This document shows, piece by piece, positions 28,058 to 46,708 of a DNA stretch of 64,000 nucleotides. The translations under genes and the position numbers were made by a program. Source of the stretch: Escherichia coli (lineage in GTDB: Bacteria; Pseudomonadota; Gammaproteobacteria; Enterobacterales; Enterobacteriaceae); the NCBI RefSeq assembly GCF_030384885.1, contig NZ_CP128613.1; one strand, written 5' to 3'. Position 1 is the stretch's first letter, and each line of letters opens with the position of its first letter. The notes beneath the pieces are model-generated. The model searched no databases and was not told where the DNA came from. It saw only the letters and a program-made list of their open reading frames with translations.

Positions 28058-30292
<2,235 letters not shown>

Positions 30293-30565
30293 TTATAATT
30301 GAATTAATCCACGGATGCGATAGTTGAGATCTTACATATTGTTGGTTAAAGAGATGTAGATCAAATTGATCGTAATTAAGACTTTTTGATTATGTCCGAT
30401 TTCGGACAAATGCTTTATAAAAAAGGTTTTAGCTTCGTAAGCTTCAAGAAATGAGGGAGAAAACAAGGCTGACTACCTTATTTTCTCACTCGCATTTCGA
30501 GGCAGCATTTTGTGCTCTGTTTAAAATTTGTGATCACAGTGTGATTTTCACAAAAGGCGCACTAT

Positions 30566-31459
<894 letters not shown>

Positions 31460-31535: not shown

Positions 31536-31808
31536 AGGAAAAGCTGAAGGGCGTCAACCGAAAAATGACCAATGATGGTGAGGAAAAATCAGGGAAGATG
31601 AAAAAAATTCAGGATAAAGGCCAAAGTTCCTCGTACCTGAACATGTGGAATATACCTCATTTAAGATGATATTTATTTGTTTAATTATTTTTTCTATTAA
31701 CCGGTGCAACGAGTGTTAAAGCGTGTAATTTTAGGATTATATCAATAGTCACGGTTATACAAACAGTGATAATTTATGAAATAATTTTATTTACCAGAGG
31801 AATAGCGC

Positions 31809-32783
31809 ATGTATCTTAATACTCAAGTTCAATATAATAAGTTAAATAAAGATGAAAAAAAGATCCTGTTGTTACAAAAGCTAGCCCATTTAACTGATTT
31901 TACTTTTGACAGAATAGAGACATTTTCAGCATTTGGACAATCTACTGAAACAGGTGTTTTTAAATATAAAGATGGCAATGAATTTGTTGTTGTCCCCGGG
32001 GATACAGTAATATTAGGGTGGGATGCCAGTCTCAATAATATGGATGGTCCGACAAAACAAGAATTTGAAGAGATGTTGGAACCAGAAGGTTTAGATTTGA
32101 ATAATTATCTCACCGACTCTTGCACACCTGTCAGGAAGGTTACAATTTCCCCGATGCTGGTTGAAAGAAACGTTCACGCCGAACCAAGTTGGAAGGAAGT
32201 ATCTCTTACGGACCCCCGCATCACAGAGAACAGCATGCTGCAAAAATTTCTGTCTGATTATATGGAAAAAATTAATCCTGGAGTTCACGAATTAAACGCA
32301 AGATTGAGATTACAATATATAGATGGGGATTTATTTGCACAAATATATGAATCAATTAGCTATGATGAGTTACTTCAAAATATCCAAAGCAATAGTTTTG
32401 ATCTTCCGAGCGAAGATGAATGGGAATATTTATGTGGCGGTGGTTCCAGGACACTCTGGCGCTGGGGGAATAATTTCGACTATCAAATGAAAATCCCATT
32501 TATTACTTCAGAAGAACCAACAACCTGGGATATAGAATGGCCTAATCAGTTTGGGTTGCAGATTGCATTTGATCCCTATCTTCAGGAAATTATTAATGAT
32601 AAAGATATTCTTCTGAAAGGTGGCGATGGTGGGTGCAATCTCTGCGGAGGTGCTAATGTTGTATTAGGATTCTTGCCTGTGGCAACTTATTACAAAGGAT
32701 ATAATAAACATACGGACGAATTAGAATATATGGATGACATTGGAGACAATTATACTTCTTATCGCAGAATAATTCGTTTATGA
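31809..32783 (+). CDS. Hypothetical protein, AT-rich gene; weak FGE-sulfatase (SUMF1)-like motif
   Basis: 324 aa ORF with AGAGGA RBS; motif LPSEDEWEYLCGGGSRTLWRWGNNFD resembles the FGE-domain EWEY...GG core; no other FGE signatures recognised. Confidence 0.6.
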   Translation: MYLNTQVQYNKLNKDEKKILLLQKLAHLTDFTFDRIETFSAFGQSTETGVFKYKDGNEFVVVPGDTVILGWDASLNNMDGPTKQEFEEMLEPEGLDLNNYLTDSCTPVRKVTISPMLVERNVHAEPSWKEVSLTDPRITENSMLQKFLSDYMEKINPGVHELNARLRLQYIDGDLFAQIYESISYDELLQNIQSNSFDLPSEDEWEYLCGGGSRTLWRWGNNFDYQMKIPFITSEEPTTWDIEWPNQFGLQIAFDPYLQEIINDKDILLKGGDGGCNLCGGANVVLGFLPVATYYKGYNKHTDELEYMDDIGDNYTSYRRIIRL

Positions 32784-32864
32784 GTAAAAATTATATTTCA
32801 GGACAAGAAGTTATGCTCGAGTCAAGCTAATGAATTGCTTAACGCAAGGAATAAAAACGTATTG

Positions 32865-34346
32865 ATGAACACTGGGAATTTCGAGTCGATACAAATCATG
32901 ATCGCCGCGCAAGAGTGGCGTAGCCTGCCGCTGCATCTGCGTTTGTATCAGGCTTTTCGTCAGTTGGTGATTTCTGGCGCGTTGTCTGATGGCGCAAAAC
33001 TGCCGTCCGCTCGCGCACTGGCCCAGCAACTGCACCTTTCCAGAGATACCATCGAAAATGCCTATTCCCAGCTCCACCGCGACGGTTTTATGGCTCGCAG
33101 GCAGGGGGCCGGGAGTTTCGCCAGCCGCCAGGGGATACCGCATATTCAGGGCCAGCATGCGCAACCACCCTCGCCCGGACAAGTACCGGCTTTAAGCGCT
33201 CGCTGGCAGCCAATTGCCGATCGCGCAGTCTCTTTCGATGCCCGCCAGATGCAGACCTTTACGCTTGGCCTGCCGGAAACGCGAAACTTCCCGCTAAACA
33301 TTTGGCAGAACTTTTCCCGCCAGATCCAACGTGAGCAGGCGCATACGCTGATGTTAAATAGCGATCCGCAGGGCGAGCCACAGCTGCGCCAGCAAATTGC
33401 GCATTACCTTAATTTTGAACGCGGCGCGAAGGTAGATGCCGGGCAGATTGTGATTGTCAGCGGCGCACGGCAGGCGTTCTGGCTGTGCGGGCAACTGCTG
33501 GCAGAGGCCGGACAGTCGGTGGCGATGGAAAATCCGGGCTATCCCGGCGCGCGTCAGGCGTTTTCTGCCGCACAGCTTAATCTTCTTCCCGTTGAAGTGG
33601 ATGACGCCGGGATCCGGGTGGATAAACTGCCGCCCGCGCCGCTGGTTTACGTCACGCCCTCGCACCAGTTTCCTTCCGGTCATTTGCTCACGCTGGCGCG
33701 GCGTCATGCCCTGATTGCCTGGGCGCAGGCGCACAATGCATGGATTATCGAAGACGACTACGACAGCGAATTTCACTACACCAGCGCGCCCGTCGCCTGT
33801 CTGCAAGGGTTAGACTGCGAGCAACGCACCCTGTATGTCGGCACTTTCAGCAAAACGCTCTATCCCGGCCTGCGCATCGGTTATCTGGTGGTGCCGACGT
33901 CGCTGGCTGCGCACTTTGCCGCCGCGCGTAATTTGCTTGATGGCGCAACGCCTGCGTTATCCCAACTAACGCTGGCGCGATTTATCGAGTCCGGTCATTT
34001 TGCCGCCCATATTCGCAACATGCGCAGTATGTACGCAGTGCGACAGGCGAGCCTGGCAGAGGCTATTCATCAACACTTAAGTGAATGGGTCACGCCAGTG
34101 GTGACATCCGGTGGGTTACAAATGCCCTGCTGGCTGCATGAAGGTATTGATGAGCAACAGACGCTAAATGCCGCGCGCCGCGCCGGGTTAAACATCGCCG
34201 GAATGCGCCAGTTCTGGCTGACGCACCCCGCGCCCGCGGGCTGGCTGCTGGGATTTGCCGCCTTTACCCCCTACGAGATTGAACAGGGCGTCAAGCGTCT
34301 GCGGGCTGCATTATGCACTGAAAACGTGCGCCCAGCCGGGTCATAA
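32865..34346 (+). CDS. MocR/GntR-family regulator with fused PLP aminotransferase-like domain
   Basis: N-terminal GntR HTH (…LPSARALAQQLHLSRDTIENAYSQLHRDGFMARRQGAGSFAS…) and large C-terminal fold-type-I-like domain; start ambiguous (TTG 32835, ATG 32865 or 32898). Confidence 0.8.
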   Translation: MNTGNFESIQIMIAAQEWRSLPLHLRLYQAFRQLVISGALSDGAKLPSARALAQQLHLSRDTIENAYSQLHRDGFMARRQGAGSFASRQGIPHIQGQHAQPPSPGQVPALSARWQPIADRAVSFDARQMQTFTLGLPETRNFPLNIWQNFSRQIQREQAHTLMLNSDPQGEPQLRQQIAHYLNFERGAKVDAGQIVIVSGARQAFWLCGQLLAEAGQSVAMENPGYPGARQAFSAAQLNLLPVEVDDAGIRVDKLPPAPLVYVTPSHQFPSGHLLTLARRHALIAWAQAHNAWIIEDDYDSEFHYTSAPVACLQGLDCEQRTLYVGTFSKTLYPGLRIGYLVVPTSLAAHFAAARNLLDGATPALSQLTLARFIESGHFAAHIRNMRSMYAVRQASLAEAIHQHLSEWVTPVVTSGGLQMPCWLHEGIDEQQTLNAARRAGLNIAGMRQFWLTHPAPAGWLLGFAAFTPYEIEQGVKRLRAALCTENVRPAGS

Positions 34347-35397
34347 TCTCATACGGGATGGTGTTGCAGGCAGCGGCAACCTGTTCCAGCGTCTGGCCTG
34401 CGCCAATAAATTCCACCTTATCGCCCGCTGTCGGCGTGACGGCGCTGGCATCGACCATAAAGCTGTCCATACAAACCCGCCCCAATACCGGTAACCGCAC
34501 GCCGCGCCAGCATACGCCCGCCGGAGGACGCATATTTCGCGGAACGCCATCCGCGTAACCCGCGGATATCGTAGCGATACGCAGCGGACGCGTGGCGGTA
34601 ATCGTACTGCCATAGCCAACTGGCGTTCCCGCCGGGACATCCTGCACGCGCAGAATAGTTAGCGTCAGCGTAAAAGCCGGTTTTAGCGGCCTGGAAAACC
34701 ACGGCTGGGCGACGCCAAACAGCGCAATCCCCGGACGGCAGAGATCTTCCCGCCAACCTGGTTGCAAAAACATTCCGCAGGAGTTCGCCAGCGAAAATCG
34801 GCTGCTGGGGAAAACCGTTTTTGCCTGCTGGAATAGCGCGTGTTGCGCCACATTTAACGCATGATCCGGCCTGTCGGCGTTCGCCAGATGGCTGATGATA
34901 TAGTCCGGCGCAGGCCAGTTACGCTCACGAAATATCGCCGCCAGACGCATCAGTTGTTGCGGCATCACGCCCAGCCGCGACATACCGGAATCGAGCTGGA
35001 TCATCACCGCACGCCGCTGCTGGCGCGTTTCCAGTAACGTAAGCCACGCCATCACCTGGTCAATGGAATTGAGCAATGGCGTGATCTGCTGCGCGTAACA
35101 ATACGCCATCGCCTCCGGCATAACCCCATTAAGCACTACCACCATCGCATCAGTGGGCAGGATTTTACGCAGCGCCACGCCCTCCGAAAGCTGTGCCACA
35201 AAAAAGATCCGGCAGTTCGCCGCATACAGGGCGGGCGCAATCGCCTCCGCCCCCAGACCATAGGCATTGGCTTTCAACACCGCGCCACATTGCGCAGGGG
35301 CAACATGGCGCGCCAGCGTGCGATAATTATCGACGATGGCGGCGAGATTGACGCACATAACGCCGCACGCCGCCTGGATTTCAGTAGAAGTCATCAT
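34291..35397 (-). CDS. Alanine racemase-family PLP enzyme (fold type III)
   Basis: PLP-lysine motif AVLKANAYGLGA and C-terminal GRVCMDSFMVD motif; start ATG overlaps the stop of the upstream SHMT-like gene (ATGA). Confidence 0.85.
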   Translation of the reverse strand: MMTSTEIQAACGVMCVNLAAIVDNYRTLARHVAPAQCGAVLKANAYGLGAEAIAPALYAANCRIFFVAQLSEGVALRKILPTDAMVVVLNGVMPEAMAYCYAQQITPLLNSIDQVMAWLTLLETRQQRRAVMIQLDSGMSRLGVMPQQLMRLAAIFRERNWPAPDYIISHLANADRPDHALNVAQHALFQQAKTVFPSSRFSLANSCGMFLQPGWREDLCRPGIALFGVAQPWFSRPLKPAFTLTLTILRVQDVPAGTPVGYGSTITATRPLRIATISAGYADGVPRNMRPPAGVCWRGVRLPVLGRVCMDSFMVDASAVTPTAGDKVEFIGAGQTLEQVAAACNTIPYEIMTRLGARFQCIMQPADA

Positions 35398-36632
35398 TGA
35401 TAAGACAACGGGTAGCGGTTGGTTAGTTGTATTACTTTTTGCTCAATATCGGCGCAAATGCCTGCGATATCTGACGAGTTGATGGCGAAAATGATTTCAC
35501 TTATCCAGTCAGCAATAAGCACAAAATCATCCGCCTTCATCCCACGCGTGGTGCAGGCCGCGCTGCCAATACGGACCCCGGAGGTAATCGACGGCGGCTG
35601 CGGATCGCCCGGCAGGGTGTTTTTATTGACCGTGATCCCCGCCAGTTCGAGAAAGTACTCCACCTGTGCGCCGGTTAACCCCTGCGGGCGCAGGTCGATA
35701 ATCCCCAGATGGCAGTCGGTGCCGCCCGTTAACAGCGTCAGACCGCGCTGCGCCAGTTGCTGGCACATCGCCTGCGCATTGTCGATAACCTACCCGGCGT
35801 AACGTTTAAATTCTGGTTGTAATGCCTCGCCAAGCGCCACCGCTTTCGCCGCGATAACGTGCATCAACGGCCCGCCCTGCAAACCGGGAAAGATGGCGCT
35901 GTCGATTTTTTTCGCAAGCCTGGCGTCATTGGTGAGGATCATGCCGCCGCGCGGCCCGCGCAACGTTTTATGCGTGGTGGTGGTGACCACATCAGCATAC
36001 GCCAGCGGCGAAGGAAAACAGCCGCCCGCCACCAGCCCGGCAAAGTGCGCCATATCCACCAGCAAAATGGCATCAACGGCATCGGCAATGCGGCGAAAAC
36101 GGGCAAAATCATAGTGGCGTGGATAAGCCGATCCTCCGGCAATAATTAACCGTGGGCGCTCGCGTAGCGCGATCATCTCGACCTCATCCATATCAATCAG
36201 GCCACTATGGGCATCGACGCCATAGTGAAAGGCGTTAAACCATTTGCCGGATTGATTGACCGGAGAACCGTGCGTGAGATGCCCGCCGCATTGCAGGCTC
36301 ATGCCAAGAATTTTGTCGCCGGGCTTCAGCAACGCCAGATAGACCGCCTGATTCGCCTGGCTGCCGGAGTGAGGCTGCACATTGACGTAACGCGCGCCAA
36401 AGAGCTGCTGCGCGCGGGTTATCGCCAGCATCTCAACCTCATCAATAAACTTACAGCCGCCGTAATAGCGATGCTGGTAATAACCTTCGGCGTATTTATT
36501 GGTTAACACCGACCCCTGCGCCGCGAGAACGGCGGGGCTTACGAAATTCTCCGAGGCAATCAGTTCCAGCGACTGCTGCTGGCGCTGTTGCTCCTGGTTA
36601 ATCAATGCAAAAAGTGGATCGTTATTTATCAT
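35394..36632 (-). pseudogene. Serine hydroxymethyltransferase (GlyA)-like gene interrupted by an in-frame TAG at 35790-35792
   Basis: N-terminal ORF (…[31 protein letters not shown]…[14 protein letters not shown]…PEFKRYAG*) and C-terminal ORF (VIDNAQAM…TSGVRIGSAA…) are in the same frame, separated only by TAG where GlyA has Gln. Confidence 0.75.
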
Positions 36633-36864
36633 GCGCTTCCCCCGCAAATTCATCATGCGATGATTTTCGCAGGGAAAACCTCGTCCGCACCCTGCCACTT
36701 TTTAGACTGAGCGCAGACCACCTATGTCGTTTTACTTAAAAGAAGAGGGAAGAAGGCTCCAGGCATCTCCATATGCGATTCTGGTTGGTAATACATCATA
36801 TTCCAGCTGCTCTTATCCGCCTACGTTATTGCATATACGGATAAGGCAGCCTCAATACGTACTT

Positions 36865-38430
36865 TTACTTGATATCTTTCACGCGCATACCGTTGATCTG
36901 TTCATCCGTGATGGTATTACCCGCTTTAAAGTAATCAACCACCGCGTGATAAACGTAATAACCGCCCGTCGTATTGCGCGCTTTACCCTCGGTAAACGCG
37001 GTAAAACCATCTCCACCATCAGCAAGGAAACTCTGAGTGGCAATGTGGTAAACCGTCGCATCTTCAATCGGTTCGCCATTCAGAGTCAGCGAGATAACCC
37101 GCTGACCAACCGGCTTGCTGCTGTCGTACTTCATTTCCAGGCCTTTCGATACCTGTAAAACGCCATTACTTAAACTTGCGCCGTGTTCCATCAAACTGCG
37201 TAATTGTTTACCCGTGAGTTCCATCGTCACCAGTTCGTTGGGGAACGGGAAGGTACTGATGACGCCACCCATCGTAATTGCACCCGCCGGGATCTCATTG
37301 CGGATACCGCCAGAGTTGGTTAACGCCAACTGGGTATTTTTACCCGCCGCTGCCAGCAAAGCGTCCGCCGCCAGATTCCCGAGAGAAGCCGATTCACCAT
37401 AGGCACGTTTCAATTCAACTGGCGATTGCGCCACCGTTTGCTGCACGACTTCATCCAGCTTTTTATTCCAACTATCAATCACCTGTTTTGTTTGCGGATC
37501 GGGCTTCCACTCGTCGGCGTAAAGGGTTTTAAGCTCGAAGTTTTTCACCGTAAAAGTGTGCGGCTTCTCTTTGTAGTCTAGAACCAGTTTACCCACATCA
37601 ATCCCGCCGCTGTCAGTGGAGAGGATTAACGTATTGCCGACTTTAATCGGTTCCGGCGTACCCACATGTGCATGCCCGGTGATCAAAATATCCAGCCCTT
37701 TCACCTGACTTGCCGTCTGAATATCTTTATCCAGTGCGCGGCGCACATCTGTGCCCCCCATACTGGACTGGCGGGCCGGAACACCTTCGTGAATCAGCGC
37801 AACGGTCAAATCAACCTTGCCTTTGAGTTCATCGATATAACGTTGTAGCCATTTAATTTCATCACGCGCCTCAATACCCACTCGCGTTGCCGCAGATACC
37901 GTATCATTAAAGGCAAATACACCGTGCAAACCAATCACGCCAATTTTCACGCCGTCTTTTTCAATGATGGTATAGGGCTTATCCCAGAATGATTTACTGC
38001 TGTTCTGATAAAAAACATTACCCTGCACAATCGGGAATTTTGCCTGACTCAACTGTAATAACGTATTGTCCCAGCCGTGATCAAATTCATGATTACCTAT
38101 AGTGGCCGCATCGAACGGCATGGTATTCATAATATCGATAATCGCCTTGCCTTTAGTCAGGCTGCTAATATACGGCCCGGTAAAATAGTCACCCGCATCA
38201 AAAAACCAGGTCGCTTTGTTTTTAGCTTTTTCTTGTTTAACAAGCGTAGTGATATTTGCCCAGCCGCCAATATCTCGTTTACCGTCAGCAATCCACGGCA
38301 CTTTATAAGGCTCTACATGTGCATGGAGGTCGTTGGTATAAATGATGGTGACATCTTTGGCGCAAGCCCAAAACGGCAGTGTTAATGCGATACCCGCAGC
38401 AAGCATTTTAATTTTCATAAACAATCCCAT
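36865..38430 (-). CDS. UshA/CpdB-family periplasmic nucleotidase (paralog A)
   Basis: Signal peptide [20 protein letters not shown]; metallophosphatase motifs [26 protein letters not shown]; C-terminal 5'-nucleotidase-type domain (…[13 protein letters not shown]…). Confidence 0.85.
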
Positions 38431-38550
38431 CCAGTGAGATAAAGGATTGCTACATTACGTTCTGAAAGGCTTTTTTATGTGAGAATACTCACATCCAGAG
38501 GCGATAACTGTAGGACAAAATCAACGACCTTATGAAATCGTTGGTGATAT

Positions 38551-39678
38551 ATGTCAAATCTGTTTGCGATTAATGTCTGTAAAACGTTCGGTTGTCGAAA
38601 TTTGGGATTGGCCTCATCGGAAGATTACAGTTGGCCAGACTATAAACTGGGTTTTCCGGCACTGCACTGCCAGGCATGCGGAAGTTACCCCCCTTTGTTT
38701 GATGAACAACAATTTCGTGACTGGTTGTCAGTTCACATGACTGCGTGTGCCATAGAAACAGGGCATTTTTGTCCATCATGCTATTGTAAAGAAAAGATTT
38801 TTTATGGCCACAACCCGCAGGGAACACAACGCGTTCAATGCCGTTCATGCAAAAAAGTCTGGACTCCGAAACAGCAGCCAGCAAGAGAAATTACGTATCC
38901 CCAGTCCATTGAAACCGTTCAACTGTTCATGCCCTTTCAAGGAGCCAGCGCAGTACAAAAGCTCTATGTTTTAGTCAGTCTTGACGCCACTCGTGGCAAC
39001 ATCCTTCATCTCTCCACGAATTATACGCAACATCAGACAGGAGACAGTCTGCGGTACAGTTACAGAGGCAATACAGAACCAACTGAGCACCATAGCGATA
39101 TTGCGCAGAGGGTAGATATGCGTGAAGCACAATTCTTGCGCCGGAGCCAGTTCGATGAAATTCAGTATGGCAGTGCTGTGCTCAAGCGCAACGGCAAGGG
39201 AGCCATACTACGCCCGGTTATCACGGCACACGGGCATTTCAGAATACTGAAAATCCGCTTTCCACATGTCAAAACGCATATCATTTCACACGAATGTTTT
39301 CTGAGAGGCGCAATTATTACAGCCTGGGCAGATCAGTTCCGCCAACAACAAGGCGAACTTTGGTTCGTAGAGGAAGAAATCAGCGACCGTAATGCTGATA
39401 TTCCCTGGCATTTTCAGGGAACGACATACCATGGTTGGTGGCAAAATCAGTGGCAACGCTGGGGGCAGGGGAATAACAGCAAGATGGTCTGCCTGCTCAC
39501 AGGAGTCTCCTTAGAAAGGGGCGCAAATGTTTCTCTGGCAACCAGTCGTTGCTTTATCACATGGCTGACAGACCAACACGACTTTACCCAAAGCGCGTTA
39601 TTATCCGCAGGTCGCGTAACGAAAATGCTGACCTCACTGGCGTTAAAATACAATGAATCGCTCACTCCATCTTGTTAG
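38551..39678 (+). CDS. Hypothetical cysteine-rich protein with N-terminal zinc-ribbon motifs (transposase-like zinc ribbon?)
   Basis: 375 aa; C-x4-C, C-x2-C, C-x2-C…C-x2-C spacing including FYGHNPQGTQRVQCRSCKKVW, resembling IS1 InsA / IS1595-type ribbons; remainder unassigned. Confidence 0.6.
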   Translation: MSNLFAINVCKTFGCRNLGLASSEDYSWPDYKLGFPALHCQACGSYPPLFDEQQFRDWLSVHMTACAIETGHFCPSCYCKEKIFYGHNPQGTQRVQCRSCKKVWTPKQQPAREITYPQSIETVQLFMPFQGASAVQKLYVLVSLDATRGNILHLSTNYTQHQTGDSLRYSYRGNTEPTEHHSDIAQRVDMREAQFLRRSQFDEIQYGSAVLKRNGKGAILRPVITAHGHFRILKIRFPHVKTHIISHECFLRGAIITAWADQFRQQQGELWFVEEEISDRNADIPWHFQGTTYHGWWQNQWQRWGQGNNSKMVCLLTGVSLERGANVSLATSRCFITWLTDQHDFTQSALLSAGRVTKMLTSLALKYNESLTPSC

Positions 39679-39907
39679 TCAATACACTCGACAAACGACC
39701 ATAAATTAATGGGATCACTATTTCTCATTTAATTAAATATATGAATGTATGACTGAAAAATATAATCACAGTCAATGTTTAATTAATAACATTATTTGTT
39801 ACTAAGATCACATAATACTTTCCTGACCTATGTTTACATAAAAATAAGACACGGTGTTCCTTTTATTTAAATAATTCAACCAATGTAACAACCCCTATCA
39901 AGGAGGG

Positions 39908-41461
39908 ATGATGAGAACTGTATTTACGACTTTATCAGTCATATTCAGCGTGATGTTTTCTCACAGTATACTAGCTCAGGACGTTACTATTTATTATACG
40001 AATGATATTCACGCACATGTCAATCCGGCAAAAATTCCCGCTGTTGATAAGAACAGACTTGTAGGTGGTATGGCTAATATTGCAGGCATCGTTAATGAAG
40101 CGAAGAAAAAAAACAAAGATGTCTTTTTCTTTGATGCAGGCGACTATTTTACCGGTCCGTATATCAGTACCCTGACCAAAGGTGAAGCTATTATTGATAT
40201 CATGAACACCATGCCCTTTGATGCGGTGTCCGTTGGTAATCACGAGTTCGATCACGGCGTGCCCAATATGGTATCTCAGTTATCAAAAGCAAAATTCCCC
40301 ATTCTGCTGGGAAATATTTACTACACCGATACAAATAAACCAGTTTGGGATCATCCGTGGACCATTATCGAAAAAGATGGTTTAAAGATTGGTGTGATTG
40401 GATTGCATGGTGCATTCGCTTTCTATGATACAGTCGCGGCAAAAGCACGTGAAGGCGTAGAAGCCAGAGACGAAATTAAATATTTAAATAAAGCACTTGC
40501 AGAATTAAAAGGTAAAGTCGACATTACCGTTTTGCTAATTCACGAAGGTGTTCCGGCGCGTCAATCAAGCTTTGGTAGTAAAGATGTGGAGCGGCTACTA
40601 CAGGCAGATATTGAGACAGCTAAAAAAGTGAATGGTGTTGATGTCTTAATTACCGGTCACGCACATGTCGGAACACCGCAACCAATAAAAGTTAATAACA
40701 CATTAATTGTATCTACCGATGCATACGGCACCGACATCGGAAAACTTGTGCTTGATTACAATCCGAAAACAAAGAAAATTGATAGTTATAATGGTGAGTT
40801 AATCACCATCTTTGCAGATCAATTTAAACCTGACACCATCGTTCAAAATACTATCGATAAATGGAGCATAAAGCTTAACAAAATAACACAGGAAGTTGTC
40901 GGCCATTCTCCCGTAGTTTTAACACGTGAGTATGGCAGTTCTTCTTCTACCGGTAACCTTATTCTAGATGCAATGATGGAAAAAACACCTGATGCCATTG
41001 CCGGATTTCAAAATAGCGGTGGGATGCGAGCTGATTTTCCTAAAGGTGATATCACACTGGGAGATGTTATTAGCACATTCCCCTTTAATAATGACCTCAT
41101 CGAGATGGATTTGACGGGCCGCGATCTCAAATCATTGATGACGCATGCAACCAATCTAACTAACGGTGTGTTACAGGTTTCAAAAAGCGTTGCGGTTGTC
41201 TATGACAGCAAAAAACCACTCAACCAACGGTTAATCTCTTTCACCATTAACGGCAAACCCGTGGAAGATAATCAAACATATCGTATTGCCACGCACTCCT
41301 TTTGTGCCAGTGGTGGTGACGGTTTTGAAGCATTTTTGAATGGAAAAAATGTGAAGACGATACCGGGAACAACCTCGGCGGAATCTATCATCGATTATTT
41401 CAAAAATCATAAACCTGTCACCCCAGACTTAACTAAACGAGTCATGGACGTCGCCAAATAA
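39908..41461 (+). CDS. UshA/CpdB-family periplasmic nucleotidase (paralog B, most divergent)
   Basis: Signal peptide, same metallophosphatase motif set ([26 protein letters not shown]); AGGAGG RBS at 39901. Confidence 0.85.
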   Translation: MMRTVFTTLSVIFSVMFSHSILAQDVTIYYTNDIHAHVNPAKIPAVDKNRLVGGMANIAGIVNEAKKKNKDVFFFDAGDYFTGPYISTLTKGEAIIDIMNTMPFDAVSVGNHEFDHGVPNMVSQLSKAKFPILLGNIYYTDTNKPVWDHPWTIIEKDGLKIGVIGLHGAFAFYDTVAAKAREGVEARDEIKYLNKALAELKGKVDITVLLIHEGVPARQSSFGSKDVERLLQADIETAKKVNGVDVLITGHAHVGTPQPIKVNNTLIVSTDAYGTDIGKLVLDYNPKTKKIDSYNGELITIFADQFKPDTIVQNTIDKWSIKLNKITQEVVGHSPVVLTREYGSSSSTGNLILDAMMEKTPDAIAGFQNSGGMRADFPKGDITLGDVISTFPFNNDLIEMDLTGRDLKSLMTHATNLTNGVLQVSKSVAVVYDSKKPLNQRLISFTINGKPVEDNQTYRIATHSFCASGGDGFEAFLNGKNVKTIPGTTSAESIIDYFKNHKPVTPDLTKRVMDVAK

Positions 41462-41495
41462 AATATCATTTATCAGTCTATTTATTTAACAAGGA

Positions 41496-43121
41496 ATGCG
41501 AATGAAAACAGTGCAGCGTACTTTACTTGCCGCAACATTGCTGACTATTTTTTCGGTCTCGGTCATGGCGCAGGATGTCACGATTATTTATACAAATGAT
41601 CTTCACGCTCATGTGGATTCTTATAAAGTGCCGTATATCGCAGACGGAAAACGCGACATTGGCGGCTTTGCCAATATATCTACTTTAGTAAAACAAGAGA
41701 AAGCGAAAAATAAAGCCACCTTTTATTTTGATGCTGGAGACTATTTCACCGGCCCTTATATCAGCAGTCTGACAAAGGGCGAAGCAATAATTGACATTAT
41801 GAATACCATGCCTTTTGACGCAGTATCAATCGGTAATCATGAGTTTGACCATGGCTGGGATAATGCCCTGCGACAATTAAGCAAAGCGAATTTTCCTGTT
41901 TTATTGGGCAATGTTTATCATAAAGAGAGTGAAAAACCCTTCTGGAACAAGCCCTACACCATCCTGGAAAAAGATGGCATCAAGATTGGTATTATTGGGC
42001 TACACGGCGTATTTGCATTTAATGATACGGTCTCGGAGCTCTCTCTCCAGGGACTCGATAATGACAATAATAACCGCTTTGATAAATCTTCCGAGACCCT
42101 TAAGAATCAGGGGATTGAAGCACGTGATGAAGTGAAGTATTTGCAGCATTATATCGACGAGTTACGTGATAAGGTTGACCTCACTGTGGCGCTGGTTCAT
42201 GAAGGCGTTCCGGCGCGTCAGTCCAGCATTGGCAATACAGATGTTAGACGCGCTCTTGATAAAGATATTCAAACCGCTAGCAAGGTGAAAGGATTGGATA
42301 TTCTGATTACCGGGCATGCCCACGTCGGAACGCCAGAACCAATCAAAGTCGGCAACACCTTAATCCTTTCGACTGATAGTGGCGGTATCGATATTGGTAA
42401 ATTAGTCCTTGATGTCAACCCTACAGCTCGTACCCATAAAATGAAGAGCTTTGAGCTGAAAACAGTTTATGCCGATGAATGGATACCCGATCCAACGACA
42501 CAAAAAGTTATCAATGGCTGGAATAAAAAACTGGCGGATATTGTACGCCAACCAGTGGGTGAATCATCGATTGCATTAACTCGCGCCTATGGTGAGTCAT
42601 CGCAACTAGGCAACCTGTTTACCGATGCAATGCTTGTCGCTGCTCCGACTGCACAGATTGCATTGATAAACTCCGGCAGCTTACGTGCGGATATAAATGC
42701 AGGCACGATTACCTTTGGCGACATTACCAGTACATTCCCCTTCAAGAATGAACTTACTGAAATGGATCTCAGCGGTAAGGATCTGCGTAACCTACTGGAA
42801 CACGGGGCATCGCTTACCAATGGCATCCTGCAAATGTCAAAAGGCGCAGAAATGCGCTATACCCCGCAGAAACCAGTAGGTCAGCGCATAGTATCTTTTA
42901 AAATTAATGGTGAAGAGATCGTTGATACGAATATTTACCATGTTGCAACAACGACTTTCCTTGCACTGGGGGGCGATGGTTTTCTGGCATTCAAAGAAGG
43001 GAAAAATGTTCAGGTCCGCGCCGGAAAAAACATGTCCGATGTCGTGATCGATTATTTGAAGAAAGGCCACAAGATTACGCCTGCACAGGTAAATGAAATG
43101 CGGGTGGACGTTAGCAAATAA
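41496..43121 (+). CDS. UshA/CpdB-family periplasmic nucleotidase (paralog C, with ~27 aa Asn/Asp-rich insert)
   Basis: Signal peptide; same motif set; insert ELSLQGLDNDNNNRFDKSSETLKNQG absent from paralogs A and B; real start probably ATG 41502. Confidence 0.85.
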   Translation: MRMKTVQRTLLAATLLTIFSVSVMAQDVTIIYTNDLHAHVDSYKVPYIADGKRDIGGFANISTLVKQEKAKNKATFYFDAGDYFTGPYISSLTKGEAIIDIMNTMPFDAVSIGNHEFDHGWDNALRQLSKANFPVLLGNVYHKESEKPFWNKPYTILEKDGIKIGIIGLHGVFAFNDTVSELSLQGLDNDNNNRFDKSSETLKNQGIEARDEVKYLQHYIDELRDKVDLTVALVHEGVPARQSSIGNTDVRRALDKDIQTASKVKGLDILITGHAHVGTPEPIKVGNTLILSTDSGGIDIGKLVLDVNPTARTHKMKSFELKTVYADEWIPDPTTQKVINGWNKKLADIVRQPVGESSIALTRAYGESSQLGNLFTDAMLVAAPTAQIALINSGSLRADINAGTITFGDITSTFPFKNELTEMDLSGKDLRNLLEHGASLTNGILQMSKGAEMRYTPQKPVGQRIVSFKINGEEIVDTNIYHVATTTFLALGGDGFLAFKEGKNVQVRAGKNMSDVVIDYLKKGHKITPAQVNEMRVDVSK

Positions 43122-43133
43122 TAAAAAAATTAT

Positions 43134-43165
43134 AATGCCATTCATTCACTGAATGGCATTATTTT
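43134..43165 (+). terminator. Terminator-like hairpin after nucleotidase paralog C
   Basis: atgccattca-ttcac-tgaatggcat followed by T-rich tract. Confidence 0.5.
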
Positions 43166-43198
43166 CTCTAAATCAACAATAGATAATGAGATATATTT

Positions 43199-44059
43199 AT
43201 GTGTATAAAAAAGCACGGGATAGCTTTATCGATTCTATTAATACCTTGCATTGGAAACGCTCAGAAAATTAAAAGTGAGGAAGGCTGGTTACATCAAAGC
43301 TTGAATGTCATTGGTCGCACAGACTCTCGCTTTGGCCCAAGGCTGACTAACGACCTCTACCCTGAATATACTGTAGCAGGAAGAAAAGACTGGTTTGATT
43401 TTTATGGTTATGTTGATCTACCAAAATTCTTTGGCGTCGGCAGTCACTATGATGTTGGGATCTGGGATGAGGGCTCACCACTATTTACGGAAATAGAACC
43501 TCGGTTTTCCATTGACAAATTGACCGGATTAAATCTTGCGTTCGGCCCTTTTAAAGAATGGTTCATTGCAAACAACTATGTCTATGATATGGGTGACAAC
43601 CAGTCATCCCGGCAAAGTACATGGTATATGGGGCTTGGTACAGATATCGACACGGGTCTACCAATTAAGCTTTCTGCCAATATATACGCCAAGTATCAGT
43701 GGCAAAACTATGGTGCCGCTAATGAAAATGAATGGGACGGATATCGATTCAAAATAAAATATAGCATTCCTCTTACCCATTTATTCGGAGGGCGATTGGT
43801 ATACAATAGTTTTACTAACTTTGATTTTGGATCCGATCTTGCGGACAAATCACACAATAATAAACGAACCAGTAATGCTATTGCTTCAAGCCATATCCTT
43901 TCCCTGCTATATGAACACTGGAAATTTGCATTTACACTACGTTATTTTCACAACGGTGGACAATGGAATGCTGGGGAGAAAGTTAACTTCGGAGATGGTC
44001 CATTTGAATTAAAAAACACAGGATGGGGAACCTATACTACTATTGGTTATCAATTTTAA
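43199..44059 (+). CDS. Tsx-family nucleoside-specific outer-membrane channel paralog
   Basis: Signal peptide, C-terminal Phe; long colinear blocks matching Tsx as recalled (…KDWFDFYGY…[12 protein letters not shown]…[14 protein letters not shown]…[26 protein letters not shown]…). Confidence 0.85.
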
Positions 44060-44275
44060 ATCAGGTGATGTTTTAGATATTTTTACTTAATGCCATTTTG
44101 TAATTGTCATAAATAACTTCACCATTCACACTGTGAATTCATCGCTCAACACAAAAGCCCCCTTATTACCGGGGCACTGACCAAAGGCAAAATGACAATC
44201 AATCACCACCTCCGCAGGAGGTGGTTTAGAGGTGACAACAAAAGCTGGCAACTGCCAGCTTTTGTTCAATAATCA

Positions 44276-46708
44276 CTACAACAACTGCGCCAGACGGTTA
44301 ATATCCGACTGAATCGCCCCGGCGGTGACGTCGCGCCCTGCGCCTGGCCCACGGATCACCAGCGGGTTGTCGCGATACCAGCGGCTTTCGATGGCAAAGA
44401 CGTTATCGCACGGTAGTAGTGATGCCAGCGGATGGTCTTCTCGCACCGCTTCCACGCCTACTCGCGCTTTGCCGTTAGCATCGAAACGCGCCACGTAGCG
44501 CAACACCAGCCCCATTTCACGGGCCGCTTCCAACCGTTGTACCATCTGCTCATTAAGTTCATCGCCATTTTCAAAGAAATGGTCGATGCTGCCACCTTCG
44601 CAATGGGTTGGCACCAGTGATTCAACACGCACCTGGTCCGGTTCAATGTTGTAACCCGCTTCACGCGCCAGAATCACCAGCTTGCGCATCACATCTTTGC
44701 CGGAGAGGTCATCACGCGGGTCAGGTTCAGTTAAGCCCTGCTGCCACGCCTGATCCACCAGCTCAGTAAACGGCACGCTACCGTCGAATTGCAGGAACAG
44801 CCAGGAGAGCGTGCCGGAGAAGATCCCGCTGATCGACAAAATAGTGTCGCCGCTGTCGATCAGATCGCGCACGGTATGGTTGATCGGCAAACCTGCGCCG
44901 ACGGTGGCGTTGTATAGCCAGTGACGCCCGGTTTTTTCGAACGCGTCGTGGATCTGTCGATATTTATTGCTGTCGCTGGCTCCCGCCAGTTTGTTGGCAC
45001 TGATGACGTGGAAACCGTGGCTGGCGAAATCGAGATACTGATCAGCAAGCTGCTGGCTGGCAGTAACGTCCAGCACCACTAAATCATCATACGGATGGGC
45101 ACGCATCCACAGGAACAGCGACTCTTCATCCTGTTCGACGGCTTCATCATTAAAGAAGGCTAGCGCACGGCTGGCGTCCAGCCCGTCATAGCTCAACAGG
45201 CTGCGACGGCTGTCCACCACGCCTGCCAGCACAAATTCAAAGCCGGTGCGCGCCGAGAGCGTGCTCTGCTCACGGGCGAACAGTTCCAGCCAGCGGGAAC
45301 CGATATTGCCCTTACCGAACAATACCAGGCCGATGCGTTTTTCTGCGCGGAAGACGGACTGATGCAGCCCCTGAATCAGGCTTTCGGTAGGTCCGGTACG
45401 CAGTACTGCCACCAGGCTGATGCCGTCATCGGACTGCCAGGTAAATTCGACCGGCTGGCCTTTCAGTTGCTGCCAGAAGCGGTGGCAATGCAGCGGGTTA
45501 CGGGTGACGCCTGCACCAACCATCGCCACCAGCGCCAGCCCCTGACGCAGGCGCAGTTCGCCAGGTAATCCTGCTTCGTCGAGGATTTTCAGCGCACTAT
45601 CGGCCACTTCCGAGGTGTAGCAAAATTGCAGCAACTGGCGATCGTTATGCACGCCAACCGCCAGTGGGCGCACCTGAGCACGTTTCAGGATTTGGTCGAT
45701 CTCTTTATGCGCCAGTTTGAAATCCTGACTGGCGGGCACCTGAAACTCAATCAAACAGACATCATCGTGGCTGGTGACAATACGCGCGCCAGTACCGGAA
45801 GCCAGCACGCGTTCAATGCGCGTGGAACCTTGATCCGGCGTGTAGCTACAGCGCAGCTGCAGGTCGATTTCACTGCCAGAAACTGGCTGTAAAGTACGGG
45901 CGTGAAGAACGGGGGCCGCCAGACGCGCCAGTTCACTGGCTTCATCAAGACGCAGCAATGGCAGCAGGCAGGCATCTTTCACTTTACGCGGGTCAGCGCT
46001 GTATACCCCGGCGACGTCGCTCCAGATGGTTACGCGGGAAACTCCCGCCAGCGCACCGATTTGTGTCGCGGAATAGTCGGAACCGTTACGCCCCAGCAGC
46101 ACCGTTTCACCGGCGTTGTTACGGCTGATAAACCCGGTCACCACCAGACGTTTGCCCGGATGTTGTACCAGTAGCTGTTGCAGCAACGGGTAAGAAAGCC
46201 CTTCATCAACCTGCGGCTGCGCGGCGCGTTCAGCGCGTAAAAACTCGCGGGCATCAAGCCAGGCCGCAGGCAATCCTTGTTGATTAAGTACCGCAGACAT
46301 CAGGCGCGCCGACCACACTTCACCGTGGCCCACCACTTCCGCATACACCGCATCGTTAATACCGCTGTCGAGCAGCGCCGCCAGGCGTTCCAGATCGCTG
46401 ACAAAAGCGCTAATGAGGCTATCGGCTTCTTCGGCGGGTAGCAGGCCGCTAATCAGATCGCACTGATAGCGACGCAGCGTTTGTTGAACCTGATGCGCAG
46501 AGAGACGATCGGTCTGGCTTAGTTTCAACCAGTTAATCAACTGGTTAGTGGTGCTACCGGCGGCGGAAACCACCATCATATCGTCAGGCTGAGAGTACTC
46601 CGCCATAATGCCCGCGACACGCAAATAACACTTCACATCAGCCAGACTACTGCCACCAAATTTATGCAGTTGACGACCTTTCGCCCCTGCCTGCGCAATC
46701 ACACTCAT
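44276..46708 (-). CDS. metL: Bifunctional aspartokinase II / homoserine dehydrogenase II
   Basis: 810 aa, MSVIAQAGAKGRQLHKFGGSSLADVKCYLRVAGIMAEY... Confidence 0.95.
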   Translation of the reverse strand: MSVIAQAGAKGRQLHKFGGSSLADVKCYLRVAGIMAEYSQPDDMMVVSAAGSTTNQLINWLKLSQTDRLSAHQVQQTLRRYQCDLISGLLPAEEADSLISAFVSDLERLAALLDSGINDAVYAEVVGHGEVWSARLMSAVLNQQGLPAAWLDAREFLRAERAAQPQVDEGLSYPLLQQLLVQHPGKRLVVTGFISRNNAGETVLLGRNGSDYSATQIGALAGVSRVTIWSDVAGVYSADPRKVKDACLLPLLRLDEASELARLAAPVLHARTLQPVSGSEIDLQLRCSYTPDQGSTRIERVLASGTGARIVTSHDDVCLIEFQVPASQDFKLAHKEIDQILKRAQVRPLAVGVHNDRQLLQFCYTSEVADSALKILDEAGLPGELRLRQGLALVAMVGAGVTRNPLHCHRFWQQLKGQPVEFTWQSDDGISLVAVLRTGPTESLIQGLHQSVFRAEKRIGLVLFGKGNIGSRWLELFAREQSTLSARTGFEFVLAGVVDSRRSLLSYDGLDASRALAFFNDEAVEQDEESLFLWMRAHPYDDLVVLDVTASQQLADQYLDFASHGFHVISANKLAGASDSNKYRQIHDAFEKTGRHWLYNATVGAGLPINHTVRDLIDSGDTILSISGIFSGTLSWLFLQFDGSVPFTELVDQAWQQGLTEPDPRDDLSGKDVMRKLVILAREAGYNIEPDQVRVESLVPTHCEGGSIDHFFENGDELNEQMVQRLEAAREMGLVLRYVARFDANGKARVGVEAVREDHPLASLLPCDNVFAIESRWYRDNPLVIRGPGAGRDVTAGAIQSDINRLAQLL

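Follow-up and report, generated by a model that had tools for sequence, protein, structure and literature searches.

Between metF and katG of Escherichia coli, a perfect palindrome and an adjacent TGTGA/TCACA pair raise the question of whether this inverted repeat ends metF transcription, acts on katG as a site for CRP or FNR, or does neither. We addressed this question in a 64,000-nucleotide stretch of an E. coli genome (contig NZ_CP128613.1), referred to here as the window. It is matched at 100% by E. coli strain 2013C-4282. A first-pass annotation had reported the string tgtgatcacagtgtgattttcacaaa at this position, and the string is present, one base to the left of where it had been estimated to lie. 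The perfect 10-bp palindrome and the accompanying TGTGA/TCACA pair were both found, at 30529-30538 and 30540-30552, and the placement between the metF stop codon and the katG upstream region was correct, as was the gene context. The features that define the locus are as follows.

30566-31456, minus strand: metF
30568-30566, minus strand: metF stop codon TAA
30540-30544 and 30548-30552: TGTGA and TCACA of the second pair, TGTGA-TTT-TCACA, with a 3-bp spacer
30529-30538: perfect 10-bp palindrome TGTGATCACA with a central GATC, perfect in the window-type allele only
30238, minus strand: katG ATG

The two genes thus have the same orientation, both being encoded on the minus strand. Read in the direction of metF, the repeat starts 13 nt past the metF TAA; its centre lies downstream of the metF stop and about 295 bp ahead of the katG ATG. 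RefSeq E. coli genomes carry no annotated feature at the position of the repeat.

In order to judge how unusual the repeat is, its parts were compared with chance expectation. The 10-mer TGTGATCACA occurs once in the window, compared with 0.07 copies expected. Given that perfect 10-bp palindromes of any sequence are common in the window (56, versus 77 ± 9 in Markov-1 simulations), the palindrome alone is unremarkable; perfect palindromes of 12 bp number fifteen. Four TGTGA/TCACA half-sites inside 24 bp were reached in none of 300 simulations, indicating that their arrangement is non-random, and clustering of this kind points to a single nested inverted repeat, not to four separate sites.

The first-pass annotation had suggested a CRP- or FNR-like site affecting katG, to be checked by a motif scan. 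For CRP we scored the 16-bp core TGTGA-N6-TCACA (within the 22-bp site) and for FNR the 14-bp frame TTGAT-N4-ATCAA, in each case over 10 core positions. The repeat shares with CRP sites the exact inverted TGTGA and TCACA pentamers; however, a CRP site requires an N6 spacer within its 16-bp core, whereas the half-site spacings here are 0 and 3 bp, and the top 16-bp CRP frames over the repeat (starts 30511, 30529 and 30540) do not exceed 7/10 core matches. Across the whole window, 159 CRP frames score 7/10, 25 score 8/10, three score 9/10 and one scores 10/10. The top FNR frame within 30490-30570, GTGATTTTCACAAA, also gives 7/10. Since 7/10 core matches represent background level for CRP and FNR, the repeat fits neither, and the scan spoke against the suggestion on which it bore. 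Furthermore, at about 295 bp from the katG ATG, the repeat would fall outside the placement (about -40 to -100) suited to class I or class II activation, or to repression, of a promoter. Neither metF nor katG is named in the main text of the CRP genomic-SELEX paper (PMC3105977), and in the portion of the Crp ChIP-exo supplement covered here katG appears solely in the transcription-unit table.

FNR has a documented site in the katG upstream region. An FNR ChIP-seq peak was reported upstream of katG, with the site TTAATTAAGATCAA given at K-12 coordinate 4131717 (Myers et al., 2013). By alignment, this coordinate maps exactly to the following element of the window, 150 bp from the palindrome.

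30366-30379: FNR site documented upstream of katG, TTGATCGTAATTAA here and TTAATTAAGATCAA in K-12, 9/10 core matches

The FNR site list of the same study (Myers et al., 2013) has no entry at the palindrome coordinates. The repeat resembles an FNR site in being inverted with a GATC-containing core and in lying within an FNR-occupied intergenic region, but its top frame reaches 7/10 and the published TTAATTAAGATCAA site is 150 bp away. The analysis removes a tempting false positive, namely a repeat that bears exact CRP-type pentamers without being a CRP site, and it locates the actual FNR site upstream of katG 150 bp from the palindrome. As a separate observation, about 134 bp separate the FNR-type site TTGATCGTAATTAA from the katG ATG downstream of it; the site departs from the K-12 sequence at a single spacer base and overlaps a GATCAA-T-TTGATC element (two GATC) that is conserved into Citrobacter and Salmonella.

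We also examined what the repeat would look like as RNA. In the metF-sense transcript it is predicted to form a stem-loop, hairpin A, with the following layout.

30527-30554, minus strand, metF-sense RNA: hairpin A, UUUGUGA[AAA]UCAC[ACU]GUGAUCACAAA
30523-30526, minus strand: UUUU run directly 3' of hairpin A, then AAAC (K-12 U00096.3 about 4133546-4133549)

The predicted fold is AU-rich and comprises 11 pairs, four of them G-C, with a 3-nt bulge, a 3-nt loop and an energy of -8.0 kcal/mol; UUUUAAAC follows directly in the metF-sense RNA. The single nucleotide that distinguishes K-12 from the window falls within the loop. A 136-nt stretch holding hairpin A together with a further stem-loop, hairpin B, folds better than 200 of 200 shuffled sequences (z = -4.1). 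The consensus terminator scan, in which at least 5 T in 8 are required, calls hairpin B; hairpin A is left uncalled by a simple terminator scan with this requirement, as it is followed only by UUUU and then AAAC. Scanning of 30100-30800 against Rfam at E<=10 returned only sub-threshold matches to eukaryotic snoRNAs and miRNAs (13.8-19 bits versus gathering thresholds of 35-57.3).

Variation of the repeat within the species was determined by exact 43-mer searches of 5425 complete E. coli genomes. K-12 reads CAGTGATCACA, and the palindrome there is therefore only 8 bp long (GTGATCAC). The comparison with K-12 proposed in the first-pass annotation thus confirmed the repeat itself, but the 10-bp perfection of the palindrome proved to be strain-specific. 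The alleles were distributed as follows.

3719 genomes (68.6%): K-12 allele, 8-bp palindrome GTGATCAC
758 genomes (14.0%): GTGTTCAC allele, GATC and palindrome centre destroyed
480 genomes (8.8%): window allele, perfect 10-bp palindrome
325 genomes (6.0%): O157-type TATGA allele
35 genomes (0.6%): TGTAA allele

Apart from the K-12 and window types, these alleles disrupt a half-site, the GATC or a stem pair (three substitutions affect both a half-site and a stem pair), and none of the changes is compensated. Hairpin A weakens to -2.6 kcal/mol in the O157-type allele, to -3.6 kcal/mol in the TGTAA allele and to -1.1 kcal/mol in E. albertii, where two changes disrupt it. A hairpin A of -7 kcal/mol or better is kept by about 92% of E. 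coli genomes. In the katG OxyR-site region, 5405 of the 5425 genomes (99.6%) have the same 43-mer as K-12, as against 68.6% for the palindrome region, which argues that the palindrome region evolves as a loosely constrained spacer and not as a protein-binding site. For hairpin B, the 43-mer is identical to K-12 in 3736/5425 genomes (68.9%), similar to the palindrome region. Between the window strain and K-12 there is one difference in the 63 nt from hairpin A onward, and about 14% difference over the next ~120 nt, so that hairpin A may be under some constraint.

To place the repeat in a wider context, we compared 80 metF loci from species-representative genomes. Hairpins A and B both lie in a spacer that is confined to Escherichia.

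30372-30565, minus strand: Escherichia-specific AT-rich spacer of about 190 nt, 36% GC, holding hairpins A and B

A blastn search found no counterpart of this spacer in 78 other Enterobacterales metF loci; in E. albertii, its identity is only 72% and the repeat is degraded. Most relatives (Citrobacter, Salmonella, Enterobacter, Leclercia and others) instead carry a compact GC-rich hairpin with a U-run no more than about 25 nt past the metF stop, e.g., GCCCTCTTCGGAGGGCTTTTTT, with energies of -10 to -24 kcal/mol. In Citrobacter and Salmonella, where katG also comes after metF, conserved katG upstream sequence stands directly behind this compact terminator. In Escherichia, a textbook compact metF terminator has given way to a long spacer that is AT-rich, evolves fast and bears different hairpins, a replacement of modest evolutionary interest and one because of which the end of metF transcription in E. 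coli is not obvious from sequence. The repeat is single-copy (median of one per genome across the 5425 genomes), and a search of phages gave no match to the spacer. A mobile or repeat element of the REP/ERIC/MITE type was considered and rejected: the repeat is present in single copy, and four apparent plasmid matches are E. coli records of 1-5 Mb that contain the same locus. Separately, we noted that the stretch of spacer bounded by hairpin B and the T6 run diverges by about 14% between the window strain and K-12, and that the MetF proteins of the two are identical (WP_000007523.1).

The second stem-loop of the spacer lies about 30 nt beyond hairpin A and is the sole minus-strand terminator-like call in the interval.

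30448-30498, minus strand: hairpin B, long stem-loop with 16-nt arms (30453-30468 and 30476-30491) and the tail AUUUCUU

For each of the nine E. coli sequences examined, hairpin B had a predicted energy between -20.7 and -26.6 kcal/mol, despite differences in the sequence of its arms. On the basis of these predicted structures, hairpin B is a better candidate for the metF terminator than is the palindrome hairpin. The Term-seq supplement of Adams et al. (2021) has no entry at 41335xx-41338xx, metF possibly being poorly expressed under those conditions. SMRT-Cappable-seq contains no metF entry, and a search of the literature on the metF terminator or on CRP control of katG found nothing that bears on the palindrome. 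Elsewhere in the spacer, a small hairpin, TGTCCGATTTCGGACA, at 30393-30408 adjoins a conserved T6/A6 run (30418-30424); it is a plus-strand terminator-like call, is conserved in E. coli and E. albertii, and could either form the last part of metF termination or serve to block antisense transcription.

Taken together, the data favor, with a probability of roughly 65%, the interpretation that the repeat forms a stem-loop in the 3' untranslated region of metF, specific to the lineage and under weak constraint, that hairpin B is the more credible terminator, and that the repeat is not a CRP or FNR site. Transcription of metF would copy the repeat into the 3' end of the mRNA, where hairpin A could form, a stem-loop rich in AU and of modest stability (about -8 kcal/mol), with four U behind it. 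Judging from sequence and folding, metF transcripts most likely run through hairpin A and end at hairpin B (30448-30498). The repeat itself would have little or no sequence-specific function and would not regulate katG; the perfect 10-bp palindrome would represent a single-base allele, the base in question falling in the hairpin loop. As the repeat is neither a CRP nor an FNR site, is variable, and forms a weak hairpin at most, it is to be regarded as an ordinary feature.

Several other explanations were weighed against this interpretation. The first-pass annotation had also considered that the palindrome might be the metF terminator, and in a revised form, in which hairpin A and its UUUU act as a weak intrinsic terminator or as a stem-loop protecting the 3' end, the first of two with hairpin B as back-up, this idea is weakly tenable but unlikely. 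An 11-bp stem followed by UUUU does stand 13 nt past the stop codon, much as intrinsic terminators (such as the GCCCTC-loop-GAGGGC-T6 found after metF in Citrobacter, Salmonella and Enterobacter) place a stem-loop and a U-run directly past the metF stop. The ancestral compact terminator of the relatives is missing in Escherichia, the K-12/window SNP is confined to the loop, and -7 to -8 kcal/mol is kept in most E. coli genomes. However, hairpin A differs from those terminators in its bulged, AU-rich stem (four G-C pairs of 11, 3-nt bulge), in having only 4 U before AAAC, and in an energy of -8 kcal/mol compared with -10 to -24 kcal/mol, and the terminator scan was negative for it. Moreover, its stem is lost without compensation in the O157-type (325 genomes) and TGTAA (35 genomes) alleles and in E. 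albertii, so that no compensatory preservation is seen, and the hairpin B downstream of it is three times more stable and was recovered in 9/9 E. coli sequences. The Term-seq data of Adams et al. (2021) also show no 3' end in the interval, with the caveat that metF may have been poorly expressed there. A CRP-family site (CRP or FNR) acting on katG from far upstream, for which one could cite the four exact pentamers within 24 bp and the in vivo occupancy of the metF-katG intergenic region by FNR, appears extremely improbable: the spacings are 0 and 3 bp, every CRP and FNR frame scores 7/10 or less, the FNR peak is accounted for by the 9/10 site at 30366-30379, which is the authors' own site, the main text of the CRP SELEX paper contains neither metF nor katG, the repeat centre is about 295 bp from the katG ATG, and the half-sites are gone in 21% of E. 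coli genomes.

The non-random architecture of the repeat, the GATC at the centre of the palindrome and the lack of a match to any known family are what might be expected if the mini-palindromes (TGTGA-N3-TCACA and TGTGA-N0-TCACA) or the GATC were bound by an uncharacterised DNA-binding protein or by the Dam/SeqA system. We consider this very unlikely given that the GATC is lost in 758/5425 genomes and other half-sites in 360 more, that the element is found only in Escherichia and has decayed in E. albertii, and that a single-copy repeat provides no regulon-like recurrence. Least credible of all is that the palindrome lies inside a small coding gene, either a plus-strand ORF of 58 codons (30451-30627) or a minus-strand ORF of 39 codons that is open in K-12. 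The plus-strand frame across the palindrome is open in eight of nine E. coli sequences, but its start codon is lost in E2865, it is frameshifted in SCPM-O-B-8794 and it ends early in E. albertii; there is no visible Shine-Dalgarno sequence, PGAP annotates no such ORF in K-12 or in the source strain, and among the aligned sequences the minus-strand ORF is only 11 codons long in that of the window strain. These frame disruptions refute the coding explanation. Finally, the Escherichia spacer might conceivably be a lineage-specific regulatory module, in which an unknown protein or RNA would bind hairpin A, with its tandem TGTGA..TCACA mini-palindromes, and adjust how much transcription passes from metF into katG or how stable the metF mRNA is. 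Such a module, which would link one-carbon and methionine metabolism to peroxide defence, is a speculative proposition to which we assign little weight.

A weak RpoN genomic-SELEX peak has been reported in the metF>katG spacer, and a sigma-54 promoter within the spacer was therefore among the candidates rejected. The spacer contains no match to GG-N10-GC, i.e., no properly spaced -24/-12 elements. In K-12, an intragenic sigma-54 site, TTGGCGCGAATATTGCC, was identified by ChIP-seq inside metF, 128 nt before the stop codon (Bonocora, 2015); this site probably explains the weak SELEX peak, which has no connection with the palindrome. Synonymous changes in the window strain have altered the site to GGGCGCAAATATCGC (about 30687-30703, minus strand), with the GG-N10-GC spacing kept. 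The -12 element is changed from TTGC to TCGC, and the site may therefore be weaker in this strain.

On the other side of metF, the window carries an island of about 12.5 kb (approximately 31800-44500) that lies between metF and metL and is absent from K-12. Its genes encode a 324-aa hypothetical protein, a PLP-dependent aminotransferase family protein, an alanine racemase, three metallophosphatase/5'-nucleotidases, a "cytoplasmic protein" and a Tsx-like nucleoside channel, together with a serine hydroxymethyltransferase pseudogene. The only perfect CRP core of the window, TGTGAGAATACTCACA at 38478-38493, is located in this island, in the intergenic region from which a 5'-nucleotidase gene and the "cytoplasmic protein" gene diverge. 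From its sequence and setting, TGTGAGAATACTCACA is a plausible candidate for a genuine CRP site serving a nucleoside-utilisation cluster.
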